Shown here: piece after piece, positions 1-10,092 of the stretch
How positions within the stretch are numbered: position 1 is the first letter of the stretch
How the letters are laid out: every line of letters begins with the position of its first letter
Source of the DNA: a virus
Lineage: Duplodnaviria; Heunggongvirae; Uroviricota; Caudoviricetes
IMG/VR virus record: IMGVR_UViG_2671180636_000007
Strand: one strand, 5' to 3'
Length of the DNA: 10,092 bases
The notes under the pieces: model-generated
Databases searched by the model: none
Seen by the model: the letters and a program-made list of their open reading frames with translations, nothing else
Told to the model about the DNA's origin: nothing
Made by a program: the position numbers and the translations under genes

Positions 1-17
1 AAGTTGGAGTCATTACC
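1..17 (+). mobile_element. IS1 right terminus (last 17 nt including the right inverted repeat); the rest of this copy lies upstream of the window
   Basis: Seen: 'aagttggagtcattacc' at 1-17. From memory this is identical to the 3' terminal 17 nt of IS1 (...ATCAATAAGTTGGAGTCATTACC). Not verified by alignment. Confidence 0.8.
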
Positions 18-2073
18 AAACGGTTGAAATGTATGCCGCTACTTACGGGTCCTGTAATCCTCTGAATAAACCAGAGGGAAAAGATCTCAANNNNNNNNNN
101 NNNNNNNNNNNNNNNNNNNNNNNNNNNNNNNNNNNNNNNNNNNNNNNNNNNNNNNNNNNNNNNNNNNNNNNNNNNNNNNNNNNNNNNNNNNNNNNNNNNN
201 NNNNNNNNNNNNNNNNNNNNNNNNNNNNNNNNNNNNNNNNNNNNNNNNNNNNNNNNNNNNNNNNNNNNNNNNNNNNNNNNNNNNNNNNNNNNNNNNNNNN
301 NNNNNNNNNNNNNNNNNNNNNNNNNNNNNNNNNNNNNNNNNNNNNNNNNNNNNNNNNNNNNNNNNNNNNNNNNNNNNNNNNNNNNNNNNNNNNNNNNNNN
401 NNNNNNNNNNNNNNNNNNNNNNNNNNNNNNNNNNNNNNNNNNNNNNNNNNNNNNNNNNNNNNNNNNNNNNNNNNNNNNNNNNNNNNNNNNNNNNNNNNNN
501 NNNNNNNNNNNNNNNNNNNNNNNNNNNNNNNNNNNNNNNNNNNNNNNCACTGTCTGGTNNNNNNNNNNNNNNNNNNNNNNNNNNNNNNNNNNNNNNNNNN
601 NNNNNNNNNNNNNNNNNNNNNNNNNNNNNNNNNNNNNNNNNNNNNNNNNNNNNNNNNNNNNNNNNNNNNNNNNNNNNNNNNNNNNNNNNNNNNNNNNNNN
701 NNNNNNNNNNNNNNNNNNNNNNNNNNNNNNNNNNNNNNNNNNNNNNNNNNNNNNNNNNNNNNNNNNNNNNNNNNNNNNNNNNNNNNNNNNNNNNNNNNNN
801 NNNNNNNNNNNNNNNNNNNNNNNNNNNNNNNNNNNNNNNNNNNNNNNNNNNNNNNNNNNNNNNNNNNNNNNNNNNNNNNNNNNNNNNNNNNNNNNNNNNN
901 NNNNNNNNNNNNNNNNNNNNNNNNNNNNNNNNNNNNNNNNNNNNNNNNNNNNNNNNNNNNNNNNNNNNNNNNNNNNNNNNNNNNNNNNNNNNNNNNNNNN
1001 NNNNNNNNNNNNNNNNNNNNNNNNNNNNNNNNNNNNNNNNNNNNNNNNNNNNNNNNNNNNNNNNNNNNNNNNNNNNNNNNNNNNNNNNNNNNNNNNNNNN
1101 NNNNNNNNNNNNNNNNNNNNNNNNNNNNNNNNNNNNNNNNNNNNNNNNNNNNNNNNNNNNNNNNNNNNNNNNNNNNNNNNNNNNNNNNNNNNNNNNNNNN
1201 NNNNNGCTTGCTGCTACTTTGNNNNNNNNNNNNNNNNNNNNNNNNNNNNNNNNNNNNNNNNNNNNNNNNNNNNNNNNNNNNNNNNNNNNNNNNNNNNNNN
1301 NNNNNNNNNNNNNNNNNNNNNNNNNNNNNNNNNNNNNNNNNNNNNNNNNNNNNNNNNNNNNNNNNNNNNNNNNNNNNNNNNNNNNNNNNNNNNNNNNNNN
1401 NNNNNNNNNNNNNNNNNNNNNNNNNNNNNNNNNNNNNNNNNNNNNNNNNNNNNNNNNNNNNNNNNNNNNNNNNNNNNNNNNNNNNNNNNNNNNNNNNNNN
1501 NNNNNNNNNNNNNNNNNNNNNNNNNNNNNNNNNNNNNNNNNNNNNNNNNNNNNNNNNNNNNNNNNNNNNNNNNNNNNNNNNNNNNNNNNNNNNNNNNNNN
1601 NNNNNNNNNNNNNNNNNNNNNNNNNNNNNNNNNNNNNNNNNNNNNNNNNNNNNNNNNNNNNNNNNNNNNNNNNNNNNNNNNNNNNNNNNNNNNNNNNNNN
1701 NNNNNNNNNNNNNNNNNNNNNNNNNNNNNNNNNNNNNNNNNNNNNNNNNNNNNNNNNNNNNNNNNNNNNNNNNNNNNNNNNNNNNNNNNNNNNNNNNNNN
1801 NNNNNNNNNNNNNNNNNNNNNNNNNNNNNNNNNNNNNNNNNNNNNNNNNNNNNNNNNNNNNNNNNNNNNNNNNNNNNNNNNNNNNNNNNNNNNNNNNNNN
1901 NNNNNNNNNNNNNNNNNNNNNNNNNNNNNNNNNNNNNNNNNNNNNNNNNNNNNNNNNNNNNNNNNNNNNNNNNNNNNNNNNNNNNNNNNNNNNNNNNNNN
2001 NNNNNNNNNNNNNNNNNNNNNNNNNNNNNNNNNNNNNNNNNNNNNNNNNNNNNNNNNNNNNATAGGGCGGATT

Positions 2074-2852: not shown

Positions 2853-3749
2853 ATGGCTAACGCCTGGCTCAGATTATGGCATGACATGCCAAATGACCCT
2901 AAGTGGCGAACAATTGCCAGGGTGTCAGGGCAGCCAATTGCAACAGTGATGGCAGTGTATATCCACCTCCTGGTGAGCGCGTCACGAAATGTCACGCGAG
3001 GTCACATTGATGTCACGACAGAAGATTTGGCAAGTGCGCTCGACGTGACAGAAGAGGTAATTGATTCAATTTTGCAGACGATGCAGGGGCGGGTACTTGA
3101 TGGTGATTTAATCACTGGATGGGAAAAACGCCAGGTGCTTAAAGAGGACAACGGCAATATTTCGCAAACCGCAAAATCTCCTGCAGAGCGCAAGAGGGCG
3201 CAGCGAGAGAGGGAAAGAAAGCGGGAACAAAATGGCGATTGTCANNNNNNNNNNNNNNNNNNNNNNNNNNNNNNNNNNNNNNNNNNNNNNNNNNNNNNNN
3301 NNNNNNNNNNNNNNNNNNNNNNNNNNNNNNNNNNNNNNNNNNNNNNNNNNNNNNNNNNNNNNNNNNNNNNNNNNNNNNNNNNNNNNNNNNNNNNNNNNNN
3401 NNNNNNNNNNNNNNNNNNNNCCGGAAGCCGATTNNNNNNNNNNNNNNNNNNNNNNNNNNNNNNNNNNNNNNNNNNNNNNNNNNNNNNNNNNNNNNNNNNN
3501 NNNNNNNNNNNNNNNNNNNNNNNNNNNNNNNNNNNNNNNNNNNNNNNNNNNNNNNNNNNNNNNNNNNNNNNNNNNNNNNNNNNNNNNNNNNNNNNNNNNN
3601 NNNNNNNNNNNNNNNNNNNNNNNNNNNNNNNNNNNNNNNNNNNNNNNNNNNNNNNNNNNNNNNNNNNNNNNNNNNNNNNNNNNNNNNNNNNNNNNNNNNN
3701 NNNNNNNNNNNCGAGGGGGTGCCACCAGAGACCATGCTGGATGGTGTGA
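2853..3749 (+). CDS. Phage replisome organizer / replication initiator (O-like; replisome-organizer N-terminal domain family)
   Basis: ATG 2853 with AAGAGGT 5 nt upstream. The visible N-terminal 130 aa (MANAWLRLWHDMPNDPKWRTIARV...DLASALDVTEEVIDSILQTMQGRVLDGDLITGWEKRQ) fits the replisome-organizer N-terminal pattern W-x-K/R-L...DPK......E-D-L-A...L-x-V-x-E-E......G-L-I...W-E-K-R-Q. A basic, charged linker follows (ERKRAQRERERKREQ). The 3' end is uncertain: the frame passes through masked blocks 3244-3420 and 3434-3711 and stops at TGA 3747-3749. Confidence 0.7.
   Translation: MANAWLRLWHDMPNDPKWRTIARVSGQPIATVMAVYIHLLVSASRNVTRGHIDVTTEDLASALDVTEEVIDSILQTMQGRVLDGDLITGWEKRQVLKEDNGNISQTAKSPAERKRAQRERERKREQNGDCXXXXXXXXXXXXXXXXXXXXXXXXXXXXXXXXXXXXXXXXXXXXXXXXXXXXXXXXXXXXGSRXXXXXXXXXXXXXXXXXXXXXXXXXXXXXXXXXXXXXXXXXXXXXXXXXXXXXXXXXXXXXXXXXXXXXXXXXXXXXXXXXXXXXXXXXXXXXXRGCHQRPCWMV
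2981..3050. repeat. Iteron-like GTCAC(G) repeats inside the replisome-organizer gene; candidate replication origin
   Basis: Seen: GTCACG at 2981, GTCACG at 2991, GTCAC at 3001 and GTCACG at 3012 (10-11 bp phasing), plus an inverted copy CGTGACA at 3044-3050. GACAGAAGA is duplicated at 3017-3025 and 3046-3054. An AT-rich stretch 'gtaattgattcaattttg' follows at about 3057-3074. The repeats fall in all three codon positions, so they are not explained by amino-acid repetition alone. Confidence 0.45.
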
Positions 3750-4152: not shown

Positions 4153-4890
4153 NNNNNNNNNNNNNNNNNNNNNNNNNNNNNNNNNNNNNNNNNNNNNNNN
4201 NNNNNNNNNNNNNNNNNNNNNNNNNNNNNNNNNNNNNNNNNNNNNNNNNNNNNNNNNNNNNNNNNNNNNNNNNNNNNNNNNNNNNNNNNNNNNNNNNNNN
4301 NNNNNNNNNNNNNNNNNNNNNNNNNNNNNNNNNNNNNNNNNNNNNNNNNNNNNNNNNNNNNNNNNNNNNNNNNNNNNNNNNNNNNNNNNNNNNNNNNNNN
4401 NNNNNNNNNNNNNNNNNNNNNNNNNNNNNNNNNNNNNNNNNNNNNNNNNNNNNNNNNNNNNNNNNNNNNNNNNNNNNNNNNNNNNNNNNNNNNNNNNNNN
4501 NNNNNNNNNNNNNNNNNNNNNNNNNNNNNNNNNNNNNNNNNNNNNNNNNNNNNNNNNNNNNNNNNNNNNNNNNNNNNNNNNNNNNNNNNNNNNNNNNNNN
4601 NNNNNNNNNNNNNNNNNNNNNNNNNNNNNNNNNNNNNNNNNNNNNNNNNNNNNNNNNNNNNNNNNNNNNNNNNNNCGAAAAACGAGCAGGTGGTATTGCA
4701 CCAGATAATTGATCGCCGGACAGCATCACTGTGCAGTGTCGGGATGTTAACAAACCTGAATCATGCCGCAATGAGCACGCTTCTTGGTGAGAGGATTATG
4801 GACCGCATGACCATGAACGGTTGTCGGTGGGTGACGTTTAACTGGGATAGCTGGCGTTCAAATGTCAGCTTTCCGGGAGTTGTGAAGTAA
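4153..4890 (+). CDS. DnaC-family replicative helicase loader (YdaV/P-like); only the C-terminal 71 codons (4676-4890) are visible and the start coordinate is an estimate
   Basis: The visible C-terminus KNEQVVLHQIIDRRTASLCSVGMLTNLNHAAMSTLLGERIMDRMTMNGCRWVTFNWDSWRSNVS matches, nearly motif for motif, the C-terminus of E. coli DnaC as I recall it (...QIVDRR...GMLTN.N.EEM.KLLGERVMDRM......VIFNWDSYRS.V). Stop TAA at 4888-4890. The start lies in masked block 3787-4675; 4153 is extrapolated from a DnaC-like length of about 245 aa. Confidence 0.6.
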   Translation, partial: XXXXXXXXXXXXXXXXXXXXXXXXXXXXXXXXXXXXXXXXXXXXXXXXXXXXXXXXXXXXXXXXXXXXXXXXXXXXXXXXXXXXXXXXXXXXXXXXXXXXXXXXXXXXXXXXXXXXXXXXXXXXXXXXXXXXXXXXXXXXXXXXXXXXXXXXXXXXXXXXXXXXXXXXXXXXXXXKNEQVVLHQIIDRRTASLCSVGMLTNLNHAAMSTLLGERIMDRMTMNGCRWVTFNWDSWRSNVSFPGVVK

Positions 4891-4911
4891 TTTTTGTTGG
4901 AGGATGTTTTA

Positions 4912-6183
4912 ATGGAAACTGTATTTGACGCACTGAAAGCACTGAAAAGAGCCTCTTCACATGTGGTGGCGTCCCGCCTTGGAATCAGCCGTGAAGATGC
5001 GGTCAACGAACTGTGGAAACTGAAGCGCCGTGGTGAAGCGGATAACAAGGGTTCGATGTGGTGGCTGATTCAGGCTGGTGAAAGTGAACCAGTGTCACCG
5101 GTACCGAAAGTGACAGCGCAAATGCTGACTGAGGCGATTGAACAACATGGCCCACAAACGGCGGATGAGCTGGCACTGATGTTCGGGATTACCTCNNNNN
5201 NNNNNNNNNNNNNNNNNNNNNNNNNNNNNNNNNNNNNNNNNNNNNNNNNNNNNNNNNNNNNNNNNNNNNNNNNNNNNNNNNNNNNNNNNNNNNNNNNNNN
5301 NNNNNNNNNNNNNNNNNNNNNNNNNNNNNNNNNNNNNNNNNAAGCCGCATCCATAGCGGAAACGGATGGTAAAGTNNNNNNNNNNNNNNNNNNNNNNNNN
5401 NNNNNNNNNNNNNNNNNNNNNNNNNNNNNNNNNNNNNNNNNNNNNNNNNNNNNNNNNNNNNNNNNNNNNNNNNNNNNNNNNNNNNNNNNNNNNNNNNNNN
5501 NNNNNNNNNNNNNNNNNNNNNNNNNNNNNNNNNNNNNNNNNNNNNNNNNNNNNNNNNNNNNNNNNNNNNNNNNNNNNNNNNNNNNNNNNNNNNNNNNNNN
5601 NNNNNNNNNNNNNNNNNNNNNNNNNNNNNNNNNNNNNNNNNNNNNNNNNNNNNNNNNNNNNNNNNNNNNNNNNNNNNNNNNNNNNNNNNNNNNNNNNNNN
5701 NNNNNNNNNNNNNNNNNNNNNNNNNNNNNNNNNNNNNNNNNNNNNNNNNNNNNNNNNNNNNNNNNNNNNNNNNNNNNNNNNNNNNNNNNNNNNNNNNNNN
5801 NNNNNNNNNNNNNNNNNNNNNNNNNNNNNNNNNNNNNNNNNNNNNNNNNNNNNNNNNNNNNNNNNNNNNNNNNNNNNNNNNNNNNNNNNNNNNNNNNNNN
5901 NNNNNNNNNNNNNNNNNNNNNNNNNNNNNNNNNNNNNNNNNNNNNNNNNNNNNNNNNNNNNCAGGCTCGTAAGGACTGGCAAAACGCCCGCAAAAAACTC
6001 TCGAGGGCAAAGCTGAAGAAACCATCTGTGGTTGATCCGGACCTTATCTGGTCATTACCGGACGGAGAAATACGCCGCTACGACAGACATCAGAACATAA
6101 TCTGTCGCGAGTGCCGGAAGAGTGAAGTTATGCAGCGTGTACCGGCTTTCTATCAGGGTGATTTTCAGGAGGCGGTACTGTGA
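4912..6183 (+). CDS. Uncharacterised protein with two tandem winged-helix-like segments at the N-terminus; the frame stays open across two masked blocks to TGA 6181-6183, so this may be one gene of about 423 aa or two genes
   Basis: ATG 4912 with a strong GGAGGA RBS (4898-4903) 21 nt after the DnaC-like stop. Visible N-terminus METVFDALKALKRASSHVVASRLGISREDAVNELWKLKRRGE...KVTAQMLTEAIEQHGPQTADELALMFGIT (two HTH-like units). Visible C-terminal part (5962-6183) ...QARKDWQNARKKLSRAKLKKPS...IICRECRKSEVMQRVPAFYQGDFQEAVL. Masked blocks 5196-5341 and 5376-5961 could hide a stop and a restart. Confidence 0.45.
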   Translation: METVFDALKALKRASSHVVASRLGISREDAVNELWKLKRRGEADNKGSMWWLIQAGESEPVSPVPKVTAQMLTEAIEQHGPQTADELALMFGITXXXXXXXXXXXXXXXXXXXXXXXXXXXXXXXXXXXXXXXXXXXXXXXXXXAASIAETDGKXXXXXXXXXXXXXXXXXXXXXXXXXXXXXXXXXXXXXXXXXXXXXXXXXXXXXXXXXXXXXXXXXXXXXXXXXXXXXXXXXXXXXXXXXXXXXXXXXXXXXXXXXXXXXXXXXXXXXXXXXXXXXXXXXXXXXXXXXXXXXXXXXXXXXXXXXXXXXXXXXXXXXXXXXXXXXXXXXXXXXXXXXXXXXXXXXXXXQARKDWQNARKKLSRAKLKKPSVVDPDLIWSLPDGEIRRYDRHQNIICRECRKSEVMQRVPAFYQGDFQEAVL

Positions 6184-6240
6184 GTGAAATTAGCTATCAG
6201 GCTTCAATTACCGCTGGCATTCGCATCAAAGGAGAGGAGC

Positions 6241-6597
6241 ATGGAAATAAAACCAGAAGATGAGTTAAGCAATATTGTTTTATTTCCGGTAAAAGAGGAT
6301 AACCCTCGTAATCAGGTTAATTTTCTTTATGAGCCATCGGAAAGACCATATTGCCATCACGCCTCTGTACGGGTTGACGAAAAAGAGCGTCAGGTCCGCT
6401 GTAAAATCTGCGGTGCGGTTGTGGAGCCGTTTGACTGGATGCTCTCTGTGGCAAAAAGAGAAACCAGACTGGCAGATGATGTAAGGCTCTTGCGCCAGGA
6501 GGAGCGGGAAAGGCGAAAAAATATAGAAAAGCTAATCCAGATTGAGCGTAATGCGAAAGCGCGGATACGCAGGGTGACAAAATATAGCCCCGAATAA
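6241..6597 (+). CDS. Small uncharacterised protein (118 aa) with a putative zinc-ribbon (C-H-H ... C-x2-C) and a charged coiled-coil C-terminal tail
   Basis: Fully unmasked ORF with ATG 6241 and an AAAGGAGAGGAG RBS directly upstream; stop TAA 6595-6597. Sequence MEIKPEDELSNIVLFPVKEDNPRNQVNFLYEPSERPYCHHASVRVDEKERQVRCKICGAVVEPFDWMLSVAKRETRLADDVRLLRQEERERRKNIEKLIQIERNAKARIRRVTKYSPE. I cannot assign a family from memory. Confidence 0.7.
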   Translation: MEIKPEDELSNIVLFPVKEDNPRNQVNFLYEPSERPYCHHASVRVDEKERQVRCKICGAVVEPFDWMLSVAKRETRLADDVRLLRQEERERRKNIEKLIQIERNAKARIRRVTKYSPE

Positions 6598-6729
6598 TCA
6601 AGGTTATTTCTGGAAGTCAAGTCGTGAGTGATGAGGACTAACAAATACGGTGAACTCGATAAAGAGATTCAGGACGAACTGGAGGCCAGGAATGATTGAC
6701 AAATCACCAAGTGAGTTCAGCTACAAAGA

Positions 6730-6745
6730 TTTATTGTCATAACGG
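6730..6745. repeat. Upstream copy of an imperfect direct repeat (TTTATTGTCAT-AACGG) flanking the restriction-modification cassette; the partner is at 10019-10035
   Basis: Seen: 'tttattgtcataacgg' at 6730-6745 versus 'tttattgtcatcaacgg' at 10019-10035. That is 11 identical nt plus 5 after a 1-nt indel, lying about 70 nt before the possible MTase start and about 110 nt after the REase stop. Statistical support is modest (AT-rich 11-mer). Confidence 0.3.
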
Positions 6746-6801
6746 GTTATGAGATCGACTTGGTGCGTGATATTCTTCGGGCCAGTTTGCTATGCGCCAC
6801 C

Positions 6802-8547
6802 ATGAGNNNNNNNNNNNNNNNNNNNNNNNNNNNNNNNNNNNNNNNNNNNNNNNNNNNNNNNNNNNNNNNNNNNNNNNNNNNNNNNNNNNNNNNNNNNNNN
6901 NNNNNNNNNNNNNNNNNNNNNNNNNNNNNNNNNNNNNNNNNNNNNNNNNNNNNNNNNNNNNNNNNNNNNNNNNNNNNNNNNNNNNNNNNNNNNNNNNNNN
7001 NNNNNNNNNNNNNNNNNNNNNNNNNNNNNNNNNNNNNNNNNNNNNNNNNNNNNNNNNNNNNNNNNNNNNNNNNNNNNNNNNNNNNNNNNNNNNNNNNNNN
7101 NNNNNNNNNNNNNNNNNNNNNNNNNNNNNNNNNNNNNNNNNNNNNNNNNNNNNNNNNNNNNNNNNNNNNNNNNNNNNNNNNNNNNNNNNNNNNNNNNNNN
7201 NNNNNNNNNNNNNNNNNNNNNNNNTATCTGATTGGGTCAATTTATACGGTAATGCTGCCATCCGCTTACCGTTCGGAATTGGGGGCTTACTATACCCCCC
7301 CACCTTTGGTAGCGCGTCTCTTGGACCTGGCTGAAAAGTCTGGTGTTGATTTTTCTCATGCATCGGTTATTGATCCTGCGTGTGGTGGCGGTGCATTTTT
7401 GGCACCAGTAGCCATTCGAATGTTAAAAAAAGACAAGGGGTCTTCCCCTGAATGGATGTTGAGGAGAATCAGTCGTCGTTTAAAGGGGATAGAGATCGAT
7501 CCATTTGCGGCTTGGATGAGTTTGGTATTGCTCGAATCTGTACTAATGCCACTATGTGTAAAGGTAAAACGTAGATTGCCTGAAGATACAATTATTGTTG
7601 CTGATGCGCTTCAGCAAGATAAATTTTCTGGTTATGATCTTGTGGTAGGGAATCCGCCTTACGGACGTGTCACTCTCGATATTAAAACGAGAGAAAAATA
7701 TTCTCGTTCGTTATTTGGTCATGCAAATCTATATGGATTGTTCACCGACTTAGCTGTTCGCATGGTTAAAGAGAAAACAGGAGTTATTGCATTTCTTACG
7801 CCAACTTCTTTTCTTGGTGGGCAGTATTTCACCGCGCTGCGAACCCTTTTGACCGAAAAAACTACTCCGTATGCCCTTGATTTCGTCACTGACAGGGATG
7901 GGGTCTTTGACGATGTTCTCCAGGAAACAATGTTGACAGCATTCAAGGCGGGAGAACATAAAGTTCGGGCCCAGGTATCCTCACTTGTCCCTAAGGGGTT
8001 GAACAAAGCAAAAATTGAGAAAATAGGTAATGTTGATATAGAAAAAGGTGGAGCAACGTGGCTTTTGCCACGCGTTAAAGATGATGCCTGTTTTCTTAAT
8101 GTATTAAAACAGATGTCTACGCGTTTAGCTGATCTGGGATACTCAGTCTCTACAGGTCAGTTAGTCTGGAATCGATTTAAGTCGCAGTTGCGTACGACGA
8201 AAGGAAAAAATAGCTACCCATTAGTCTGGGCGGAATCAATAACTTCAGCTGGTTTTCGTTTTAGTGCAGACAGAAAAAATCATGTTCCCTATATCGATAT
8301 AACCCCACAACAGGGTTTCCTTGTGACAAAATCTGAATGTGTGCTTGTTCAGCGGACAACATCGAAGGAACAGGACAGAAGGATTTTAGCGGCAATTTTA
8401 CCTCAGGGATTTATAGATGAAACTGGTGGCGTAGTAGTTGAAAACCATATTAATATTGTATATTCAAACGGATTGTTCTCTGCGGTTCGCCCTGATGTTA
8501 TTGATATGCTACTTAATTCGCATGTTGTCGATCGGGCGTTCAGGTGT
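6802..8547 (+). CDS. Gamma-class N6-adenine DNA methyltransferase (Eco57I/PstI-methylase-like) of a restriction-modification system; both ends lie in masked sequence
   Basis: The visible 441 codons (7225-8547) contain GAYYTPPPLVARLLDL, motif I DPACGGGAFLAP (FxGxG-type SAM pocket) and motif IV NPPYGR (N6-adenine catalytic motif) in the gamma-class order. A possible in-frame ATG at 6802 (no clear SD) precedes masked block 6807-7224, so the true start could be there or inside the mask. The 3' end is in masked block 8548-9254. Confidence 0.85.
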
Positions 8548-9254
8548 NNNNNNNNNNNNNNNNNNNNNNNNNNNNNNNNNNNNNNNNNNNNNNNNNNNNN
8601 NNNNNNNNNNNNNNNNNNNNNNNNNNNNNNNNNNNNNNNNNNNNNNNNNNNNNNNNNNNNNNNNNNNNNNNNNNNNNNNNNNNNNNNNNNNNNNNNNNNN
8701 NNNNNNNNNNNNNNNNNNNNNNNNNNNNNNNNNNNNNNNNNNNNNNNNNNNNNNNNNNNNNNNNNNNNNNNNNNNNNNNNNNNNNNNNNNNNNNNNNNNN
8801 NNNNNNNNNNNNNNNNNNNNNNNNNNNNNNNNNNNNNNNNNNNNNNNNNNNNNNNNNNNNNNNNNNNNNNNNNNNNNNNNNNNNNNNNNNNNNNNNNNNN
8901 NNNNNNNNNNNNNNNNNNNNNNNNNNNNNNNNNNNNNNNNNNNNNNNNNNNNNNNNNNNNNNNNNNNNNNNNNNNNNNNNNNNNNNNNNNNNNNNNNNNN
9001 NNNNNNNNNNNNNNNNNNNNNNNNNNNNNNNNNNNNNNNNNNNNNNNNNNNNNNNNNNNNNNNNNNNNNNNNNNNNNNNNNNNNNNNNNNNNNNNNNNNN
9101 NNNNNNNNNNNNNNNNNNNNNNNNNNNNNNNNNNNNNNNNNNNNNNNNNNNNNNNNNNNNNNNNNNNNNNNNNNNNNNNNNNNNNNNNNNNNNNNNNNNN
9201 NNNNNNNNNNNNNNNNNNNNNNNNNNNNNNNNNNNNNNNNNNNNNNNNNNNNNN

Positions 9255-9909
9255 CTTTGATGCCGGGCTTGAAGGAGATTCGCTGCTGAGTGCAATAAGT
9301 TCCTGGCAAGAAAATCATTTGAACAAAGCCGCTCTTGCTAGGTTGCGTTTATTGAAATCAGGGGCAGTGATTGCTGCTGATGCCGTAGTCGTCACTTTCC
9401 CAAATGGAGAGAAGAGAACTTTAGCTCCGGGCCCGTCAAGTACAATAGCTAAGGCCGTCATCGAAGTTTTTGCTCCTAATTTTCTTAAGAATCCAACTGT
9501 GCTCTGGTTGTCTGAATCCGGGAATAAAGTTGTTGCTCAGGATGATGTATTGGCAAAAGCATTGGGGCTGAATATTGATGCCTCAAAAGCACTTCCAGAT
9601 ATTATTTTGATTGATTTGGGAGAGGACCGAACGGGTTCGGACATGCTTGTAGTTTTCACTGAAGTAGTTGCGACAGATGGGCCTATAAACAGGGAACGAA
9701 AAGTTACTCTCACTCATTTGGCTATTGACGCTGGGTTCAGCGAGAAAAATCTTGCATTCCTTACGGCATTTATGGACAGAAGTGCTCTGCCTTTTAAAAA
9801 GGCAATACCAGAATTGGCGTGGGGATCTTATGCATGGTTTGCTTCTGAACCGGAGCACTTAATTGATCTTCGGGATGGTTATCCGGTAAAGATCAGCCAG
9901 AGAAAATGA
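9255..9909 (+). CDS. Putative Type II restriction endonuclease, C-terminal 218 codons visible (BsuBI/PstI-like assignment tentative); the 5' end is masked and the protein could alternatively be the C-terminal part of an M-R fusion
   Basis: Protein-like frame immediately downstream of, and in the same frame as, the methyltransferase: ...LPDIILIDLGEDRTGSDMLVVFTEVVATDGPINRERKVTLTHLAIDAGFSEKNLAFLTAFMD...; stop TGA 9907-9909. The PD...D...E-V-V segment is reminiscent of a PD-(D/E)xK-type core, and the overall feel resembles BsuBI/PstI-family REase C-terminal domains (from memory, not a search). Position next to a gamma-class MTase supports an R role. Confidence 0.55.
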
Positions 9910-10035: not shown

Positions 10036-10061
10036 CAAAAGCAATAATTGTTCTGTGGCGG

Positions 10062-10092
10062 GGTGATGCTGCCAACTTACTGATTTAGTGTA
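10062..10092 (+). mobile_element. IS1 left terminus (first 31 nt including the left inverted repeat); the rest of this copy lies beyond the window
   Basis: Seen: 'ggtgatgctgccaacttactgatttagtgta' at 10062-10092. From memory this is identical to the first 31 nt of IS1 (GGTGATGCTGCCAACTTACTGATTTAGTGTATGATGG...), in the same orientation as the IS1 end at 1-17. Confidence 0.85.

Follow-up and report, generated by a model that had tools for sequence, protein, structure and literature searches.

We show here that positions 4912 to 6597 of a 10,092-nt sequence from a virus of the Caudoviricetes (IMG/VR record IMGVR_UViG_2671180636_000007; the whole stretch is called the window below) hold three co-oriented genes. 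They come after the genes of an O-like replisome organizer and a DnaC-like loader and encode a DUF1627 protein, a DUF977 protein assigned by profile matches to the Ren family of phage lambda, and a 118-aa protein predicted to combine a zinc ribbon with a coiled coil. The interval is probably an ordinary part of a lambdoid early-right operon, placed after the replication genes and coding for DNA-binding accessory proteins, with an independent restriction-modification moron lying downstream. All three genes are already known: they are cataloged as DUF1627, DUF977/Ren-like and PHROG 1621, and they are identical or nearly so to thousands of deposited copies. An earlier, sequence-only reading of this DNA counted two genes here and could place neither in a known family, a statement that is wrong for two of the three, which belong to PF07789 and PF06163.

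The layout was taken from genomes in which the interval is unmasked. The window represents a decayed Rac/Qin-type lambdoid prophage of the Shigella sonnei/E. coli type; it is heavily masked with runs of N, and thousands of prophage regions in E. coli match the stretches that are unmasked. A search of species-representative genomes for an exact 46-mer from the N-terminus of DUF1627 gave no match. An exact match to the 118-aa product of 6241-6597, whose protein cluster is labeled Shigella sonnei/Enterobacteriaceae, retrieved ten Shigella/E. coli chromosomal loci (L004 to L013, the twin loci), which agree with the window at 100% identity over nearly every unmasked segment, including 4676-5195 and 5342-5375 (10 loci), and 99.2-99.3% identical to it at 5962-6806 (10 loci). 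Since the twin loci hold both DUF1627 and DUF977 in the part that corresponds to 4912-6183, the interval contains three genes, not two. The lengths of the masks (N-runs at, for example, 5196-5341, 5376-5961, 6807-7224 and 8548-9254) are themselves unreliable. Compared with the corresponding stretches of the twin loci, they differ by -142, +141, +22, +10, +16, +194, +30, +78, +62 and +124 nt, the surpluses of +30 and +78 nt falling within 4912-6597. As the lengths disagree although the sequence flanking the masks is 100% identical, neither reading frames nor distances can be relied on where they cross a mask, and coordinates inside the masks are therefore good to about +/-80 nt. The 429-aa open reading frame (ORF) at 4894-6183, which would make one long tandem winged-helix gene, was rejected as an artifact of reading through N, and the 1049-aa ORF at 6760-9909 as a read-through of masks.

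The three genes are tightly spaced behind the replication genes, with gaps of 21, 15 and 57 nt, the 15-nt gap being that between DUF1627 and DUF977 in the twin loci. The strong ribosome-binding sites on which the sequence-only reading relied are there: GGAGGA precedes the ATG at 4912, and AAGGAGAGGAG, in the intergenic spacer at 6184..6240 (plus strand), precedes the ATG at 6241, which opens a fully unmasked 357-nt ORF ending at 6597. A signal scan found no promoter-like and no plus-strand terminator-like site; there was no match to an Rfam family and no meaningful repeat in the three genes. As the gaps are short and no such site was found, co-transcription with the replication genes, proposed earlier, is plausible. 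A GTG at 6184 was considered as the start of the 118-aa gene and rejected, because the extension is not conserved and the ribosome-binding site precedes 6241. Homologs from other genera start at the equivalent of 6241, several of them overlapping the stop codon of an unrelated upstream gene. The bases of the spacer are read as coding in a rare recombinant Ea22-like fusion ORF (P0300, which has ...LAFASKERSMEIKPEDEL).

The DUF1627 gene (4912..5745, plus strand) encodes 241 aa (726 nt) in the twin loci, where positions 6780-7505 of L004 correspond to the window from 4912 onwards. Its start at 4912 is certain, and its end lies in a mask, counted from the right-hand anchor with an uncertainty of about 80 nt. 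The twin-locus protein reaches 309.2 bits against PF07789 (gathering threshold, 28.1), whose domain is masked in the window, and E=1.7e-121 against PHROG 630. The window's own unmasked first 95 codons, which together with a 34-nt island are 100% identical to the twin locus, match the same PHROG at E=5.3e-38. The protein thus matches its family over the full length, and in many E. coli prophages family members occupy the same place after the DnaC-like loader, whereas its N-terminal 75 residues fall outside the Pfam model, and the family is without a studied member; a literature search on DUF1627 function found no paper. The AlphaFold2 model, computed from a single sequence, is poor overall (mean pLDDT, 60.0) and contains a canonical winged helix at residues 66-130, made of three helices and a two-strand wing, with pLDDT values of 82-92. 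This domain is preceded by three helices forming a weakly predicted helix-turn-helix and is followed by a disordered Pro/Ala/Glu-rich linker (132-165) and a long C-terminal helix (191-240), an arrangement with which weak Pfam helix-turn-helix matches are consistent. DUF1627 is an optional component: among the 80 viral contigs carrying the 118-aa gene, about half have DUF1627 and most have DUF977, and DUF1627 is missing from about half of the loci that have the Ren-like gene.

The DUF977 gene (5761..6183, plus strand) encodes 140 aa (423 nt). Its start falls in a mask and is approximate, its stop codon at 6181-6183 is certain, and the last 73 codons in the window are identical to those of L004. 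In this protein, a winged helix at the N-terminus is followed by a basic linker and, at the C-terminus, by the motif CRECRKSEVMQRV; the protein scores 105.9 bits against PF06163 (gathering threshold, 22.1) over profile positions 1-134. This family had previously been recognized as a winged helix by profile methods (PMC2686095). "Tandem winged-helix-like", the earlier description of this part of the interval, is therefore broadly right, with a weak helix-turn-helix and a confident winged helix in DUF1627 and a third such domain added by DUF977. The two proteins share no direct BLASTP similarity, and the winged helix of DUF1627 matches PHROG 142, the cluster that contains the DUF977 protein, weakly only (E=1.9e-4).

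PHROG 142, labeled "Ren-like exclusion protein", is matched over its full length both by the DUF977 protein (E=2e-46) and by lambda Ren (E=1.6e-41), which assigns the former, at the level of profiles, to the Ren family. Confident homology to lambdoid proteins, named by the sequence-only reading as what would speak against it, was in this respect found in part. The two proteins are alike in having an N-terminal winged helix and a C-terminal CR(E/Q)xxxSxxM(Q/K)RV motif, and both genes lie in the PR operon after the helicase-loader gene. DUF1627 intervenes in the window, and DUF977 directly follows the loader in many of the 80 viral contigs. They differ in that Ren has 96 aa, the DUF977 protein being longer by an extra basic linker of about 40 residues, and in that Ren itself reaches no Pfam model. 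The ydaW gene of the Rac prophage of E. coli K-12 belongs to the same family, for which "LygF" in phage records is a mere annotation label. As Ren is without a known mechanism, its name says little about function.

Ren owes its name to its action against Rex exclusion, to which lambda ren mutants are sensitive. The family could thus be one of anti-defense proteins, the DUF977 protein and possibly the 118-aa protein neutralizing abortive-infection or exclusion systems, such as RexAB or retron toxins, and not acting on phage DNA. Besides the shared PHROG and the phenotype of the ren mutants, contacts between Ren and the Rex proteins in a two-hybrid assay are in line with this idea; the same study describes ren as transcribed from PR and "likely involved in DNA replication" (Thomason et al., bioRxiv 10.1101/2021.04.19.439022). 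Moreover, an overexpression screen (bioRxiv 10.1101/2020.06.22.160242) counted ydaW among several prophage "blockers" of the toxicity of retron-Sen2 RcaT. As for the 118-aa gene, it is a promiscuous accessory gene of the early region; the surface of its product is strongly conserved, and the gene is often found beside ead/Ea22-like blocks. However, ydaW is a hit in a preprint screen, without follow-up there, and is truncated in K-12, and the fixed slot that the 118-aa gene occupies in most genera, between a nuclease gene and the antiterminator gene Q, suggests a core nin gene and not an anti-defense island. PADLOC-DB 2.0, which covers defense families only, gave no match for the 118-aa protein and only weak helix-turn-helix-level matches for the DUF1627 and DUF977 proteins (E 8e-4 or worse). 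This last result also speaks against the suggestion that the genes are themselves defense components. Overall, we regard an anti-defense function as a tentative possibility, on balance unlikely; as one of the options listed by the sequence-only reading, it is retained for the Ren-like gene only.

The third gene (6241..6597, plus strand) encodes the 118-aa protein, which matches PHROG 1621 over residues 1-115 (E=1.1e-54) and reached no Pfam, NCBIfam or PADLOC family in library scans. It was described as a zinc-ribbon/coiled-coil protein in the sequence-only reading, and our two alignments of the family, one of 33 homologs (A1) and one of 57 more distant homologs (A2), bear this out. Residues C38, H40, C54 and C57, which define a CHC2-type ribbon, CxH-x13-CxxC (residues 38-57; 6352..6411, plus strand), are invariant in 33/33 sequences of A1; in A2, C54 and C57 are invariant, and C38 and H40 are present in at least 90%. 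The N-terminal 35 residues are acidic and poorly ordered and include a conserved ELSNxVxFP motif. In the AlphaFold2 model (mean pLDDT, 76.4), strands 43-46 and 51-54 are followed by a single long helix at residues 63-115 (6427..6585, plus strand), which is opened by a (D/E)PFD motif and exceeds a pLDDT of 90 in its C-terminal half. With four ligands and two knuckles flanking a beta hairpin, the protein has the features of a zinc ribbon, for which metal binding is predicted. Along the helix, an unbroken a/d heptad seam (residues 77, 81, 84, 88, 91, 95, 98, 102, 105, 109 and 112) is hydrophobic or semi-conserved in the 57 homologs. The a/d pattern thus extends over at least four heptads, as expected of a coiled coil, the oligomeric state of which is likewise a prediction. 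A basic cluster occupies residues 99-115 and contains the C-terminal segment ERNAKARIRR.

The LRxEExxRRxNIEKLIQIERNAKARIR segment of the helix is almost invariant within Enterobacterales, and between Escherichia, Klebsiella, Serratia and Yersinia the codons for Arg, Ile and Leu vary beneath invariant amino acids; the gene is therefore under strong purifying selection at the protein level. ERNAKARIRR resembles the arginine-rich motif found in P22 N and also a bZIP basic region, but the likeness is too short to test and was not used. In one subfamily (L016, L104 and many A1 members), the protein has an extra conserved C-terminal tail, G-x-K-x-PLPLWQNE, that looks like a short linear interaction motif; the copy in the window is without this tail.

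Profile and structure comparisons, which the sequence-only reading had proposed as a check, placed the DUF1627 and DUF977 proteins in Pfam, while they connected the 118-aa protein with PHROG 1621 only and with no solved relative. A sequence search of all three proteins against solved structures gave nothing better than E=0.35, and a profile of the 57 homologs of the 118-aa protein gave coiled-coil noise only (best E=0.03). With the AlphaFold2 model of this protein as the query, Foldseek against the Protein Data Bank returned only generic zinc ribbons or long helices, the best being a TFIIB ribbon at E=0.4, and the best match among the BFVD viral structures had E=0.47. A literature search on PHROG 1621, 142 and 630 or on protein accessions found no paper.

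The 118-aa gene is a mobile early gene. It is present in 1679/5426 complete E. coli genomes, in up to five copies, where it usually comes after the Ren-like gene. The family comprises 590 clusters at 50% identity in an exhaustive search, and the best-scoring clusters listed are mostly about 100-140 aa. Its hosts include Escherichia, Shigella, Salmonella, Klebsiella, Kluyvera, Yokenella, Serratia, Erwinia, Pantoea, Pluralibacter, Yersinia and Morganella, and homologs also occur in phages of Hafnia, Providencia, Enterobacter and Cronobacter. Furthermore, the gene is found on pO111_2-type plasmids of about 97 kb, taken to be phage-plasmids. On these plasmids, in Stx2a phages and in ArgO145, it lies among ead/Ea22-like accessory genes, a block situated on the early-left side in the Stx2a phages and ArgO145. 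Distant homologs lie in strings of unannotated small early genes, a context that gives no clue to function.

Some single-member ORFs (P0298, P0051, P0300, P0087, P0058, P0083 and P0080) fuse the 118-aa protein in frame to Ead/Ea22 N-termini or to DUF1133, DUF977 or DUF1627 fragments. We read them as recombination or deletion products that illustrate frequent illegitimate recombination at this gene. Being single-member recombinant ORFs, they were rejected as clues to function.

A census of immediate neighbors (81 viral loci; Yersinia-type subfamily, other Enterobacterales) revealed a fixed position for the 118-aa gene. The upstream neighbor is NinG, RusA or YbcO in 70/81 loci (55, 13 and 2 loci, respectively), and the downstream neighbor is a Q antiterminator in 72/81, drawn from three unrelated Pfam families (PF06323 in 41 loci, PF03589 in 16 and PF06530 in 15). 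Individual gene orders are YbcO, RusA, 118-aa gene and Q in Serratia; NinG, NinH, 118-aa gene, a 75-aa ORF and Q in Yersinia; and YbcO or NinG, 118-aa gene, YlcG and Q in Klebsiella. A Morganella phage has Dam, a hypothetical gene, the 118-aa gene and a junction resolvase, with an antiterminator further on. By location, the family thus belongs to the lambdoid nin region, one of the options offered by the sequence-only reading, and the position in the window is the same, Q having been lost from the remnant.

This neighborhood could mean that the 118-aa protein assists in the processing of Holliday junctions or branched DNA as a partner of the adjacent nuclease (NinG/Rap, RusA or YbcO). In favor of such an account are the observations that one of these nucleases stands directly upstream in the great majority of the census loci despite their unrelated folds, that the gene has start/stop overlaps with RusA, NinH, NinG and, in L019, YbcO, and that the resolvase of the Morganella phage lies directly downstream. 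Yet in E. coli and Shigella the gene is set apart from RusA by a variable block of several kilobases, and in Stx phages it sits in the early-left ea22 block. Since nin regions are short and their gene order is conserved, adjacency is weak evidence here, and we consider a dedicated partnership with the nucleases distinctly unlikely.

The other side of the slot invites a different proposal, namely that the 118-aa protein acts on transcription, its TFIIB-like ribbon and coiled coil binding RNA polymerase, with a conceivable role linked to Q, which follows directly in most census loci whatever the Q family. The best Pfam and Foldseek similarities, all of them sub-threshold, are indeed to the TFIIB zinc ribbon. 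The protein scores 21.6 bits (E=1.6e-4) against PF08271 (Zn_Ribbon_TF), under the gathering threshold of 29, and a Pfam scan of the 57 distant homologs found only sub-threshold zinc-ribbon and coiled-coil models, the TFIIB ribbon reaching E<0.01 in 12/57. The spacing and the strand pattern around the two metal knuckles resemble those of the TFIIB-type ribbon and of the ribbon of ribosomal protein S27e. However, the first knuckle is CxH and not CxxC, the scores stay under the curated cut-off, and the 118-aa protein has a 50-residue coiled coil after the ribbon, which the TFIIB and S27e families lack. Small phage proteins with zinc sites or coiled coils that bind RNA polymerase do exist (PMC9239242). 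DksA, TraR and lambda Orf73 are likewise small phage or plasmid proteins that join a zinc site to long helices, but their domain order is reversed, their ligands are C4, and the DxxDxA acidic-tip motif is absent from the 118-aa sequence; a Pfam scan detected no homology between these proteins and ours. Given that the zinc-ribbon similarity is generic and that there is no sign of RNA polymerase contact, a function in transcription appears very unlikely.

We thus return to accessory proteins of the replication module as the preferred explanation. The two winged-helix proteins would bind DNA as accessories of this module and, as with lambda Ren, may shield the phage, early in its development, from exclusion systems of the host or of prophages. 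The 118-aa protein would form a parallel coiled-coil dimer, with two zinc ribbons at one end and paired arginine/lysine-rich helices at the other. Its ligand in the replication/recombination phase would be nucleic acid, and most likely the DNA of the phage. It may be a positional analog of lambda NinH, a homodimeric, Fis-like DNA-bending protein encoded just after ninG (PMC7166090). Both are small early proteins encoded after a junction nuclease and before Q, and both are dimeric and basic, two properties that are predictions in the case of the 118-aa protein. The two are unrelated in sequence and fold, NinH being a helix-turn-helix protein and the 118-aa protein a predicted zinc ribbon and coiled coil.

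Several points weigh against this explanation. DNA binding by the three proteins is our best guess from fold class and charge only, and the AlphaFold2 models are of moderate (118-aa protein) and poor (DUF1627) quality. The Yersinia locus has both NinH and the 118-aa gene, which are therefore not simple substitutes for each other. The adjacency to nuclease and Q genes may be no more than a consequence of the fixed order of genes in short nin regions. Finally, both faces of the C-terminal helix NIEKLIQIERNAKARIR are very strongly conserved, which would fit recognition of a conserved host protein at least equally well. The 118-aa protein could in that case represent an unrecognized class of phage early effector, a zinc-ribbon/coiled-coil dimer whose near-invariant helix grips one conserved host machine or a defense protein instead of merely coating DNA and which forms part of a counter-exclusion toolkit together with the Ren-like protein; we hold this to be unlikely.

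The remaining question is the relationship between the three genes and the restriction-modification cassette, which encodes a 610-aa N6_Mtase/Eco57I-type methyltransferase and a BsuBI/PstI-family endonuclease (6812..9909, plus strand; L004 8572-11483; internal coordinates in the window are distorted by masking). The genes do lie between the replication genes and this cassette, as the sequence-only reading stated, and the cassette begins 214 nt past the end of the 118-aa gene. The genes, or some of them, could regulate the system or belong to it, as a controller or as a new defense component. Their adjacency on the same strand is reminiscent of controller (C) proteins, and where the cassette occurs, its junction with the 118-aa gene is retained in two distinct upstream contexts. 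In addition, loci that have the cassette and loci that lack it differ in the final codons of the 118-aa gene. C proteins belong to the Xre-type helix-turn-helix class, measure about 80 aa and move together with their cassette. In contrast, none of the three genes travels with this one.

The distributions indeed disagree from both sides, which refutes the tie to the defense cassette. The cassette is present in 2/5426 complete E. coli genomes, compared with 1679/5426 for the 118-aa gene, and in 3/80 viral contigs with a near-identical 118-aa gene. Conversely, we collected 78 loci that encode a relative of the methyltransferase, 54 of them in species genomes of many phyla and 24 on viral contigs, and tested them for the 118-aa family by profile hidden Markov model with positive controls. 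The family was found in 6/78, all of them E. coli/Shigella-type contigs, and was missing from 72/78, including all 54 species genomes. None of the proteins has a significant PADLOC match, and in other genera the 118-aa gene lies in unrelated contexts. No conserved tie therefore exists between the three genes and the cassette beyond this lineage, the cassette is an independent moron, and a role in restriction-modification is effectively refuted by distribution. A lack of conserved linkage to defense genes, which the sequence-only reading had itself named as telling against it, was found in part.

The gene next to the 118-aa gene on its downstream side is highly variable, belonging to at least seven unrelated classes among 77 near-identical loci; the 118-aa gene is therefore the conserved left flank of a moron slot, with the cassette as a rare cargo. 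In other strains, toxin-antitoxin, hokD and ImmA/IrrE genes lie further along the same downstream block. In the loci with the cassette, the 118-aa gene ends in ...RRVTKYSPE, compared with ...RRATKSRTE in cassette-free loci (window 6583-6811), and DNA matches of the gene to other E. coli stop at base 343 of 357. These two observations place the moron's left recombination joint within the 3' end of the 118-aa gene. Relatives of the cassette at 40-67% identity are scattered over Proteobacteria, Spirochaetia, Acidobacteriota and methanogens, and some S. sonnei strains (L006 and L009) have a cassette with a split methyltransferase gene.

The surroundings of the interval are best described from the twin loci. 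The order of genes is a ParE/PaaA2 toxin-antitoxin pair, the repressor gene, a Cro-like gene, YdaT, the O-like replisome organizer, a DnaC/IstB-like ATPase, DUF1627, DUF977, the 118-aa gene, the methyltransferase gene, the endonuclease gene and IS1. The element is flanked by iron-sulfur/molybdopterin oxidoreductase genes on one side and by a mannitol-dehydrogenase/YdfZ/GntR/short-chain-dehydrogenase block on the other, a neighborhood that we take to be the ynfF-ydfI region, the Qin site in K-12. IS1 copies are scattered through the element. They bracket and truncate the prophage remnant, from which Q, the lysis genes and the structural genes have been lost on this side. Both ends of the window (1-85 and 10061-10092; L004 2110-2194 and 11635-11666) adjoin IS1 copies, and its first 17-19 nt and last 32 nt recur elsewhere in the twin loci near IS1 genes.

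Two further features of the remnant lie on the immunity side. The ParE-toxin/PaaA2-antitoxin pair is located beside the prophage immunity region at about 800-1300 in the window, where all but 1206-1221 is masked (L004 3068-3552, minus strand), and a gene of the YdaT toxin family occupies 2356-2781. Within the gene of the O-like replisome organizer, nine GTCACG hexamers with a 10-nt phasing form two clusters 260 nt apart, one at 2981-3019 and one just inside the mask after 3244 (L004 5069-5107 and 5329-5377). These clusters account for 9 of the 13 GTCACG sites of the 16-kb twin locus and are probably the iterons of the replication origin.

As it stands, the finding matters little, as the genes are cataloged and the link to the defense cassette is not real. 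The 118-aa family nevertheless offers a well-defined biochemical target, since it is widespread in temperate phages of Enterobacterales, sits in a fixed slot between nuclease and Q, is under strong constraint and has no Pfam model. The Ren family is a genetic entity more than forty years old that is without a mechanism, and the hit in the retron screen hints at a general role against abortive infection. Finally, the slot downstream of the 118-aa gene is an insertion site for morons such as restriction-modification, toxin-antitoxin and hok genes, and it may aid in mining prophages for defense cargo.

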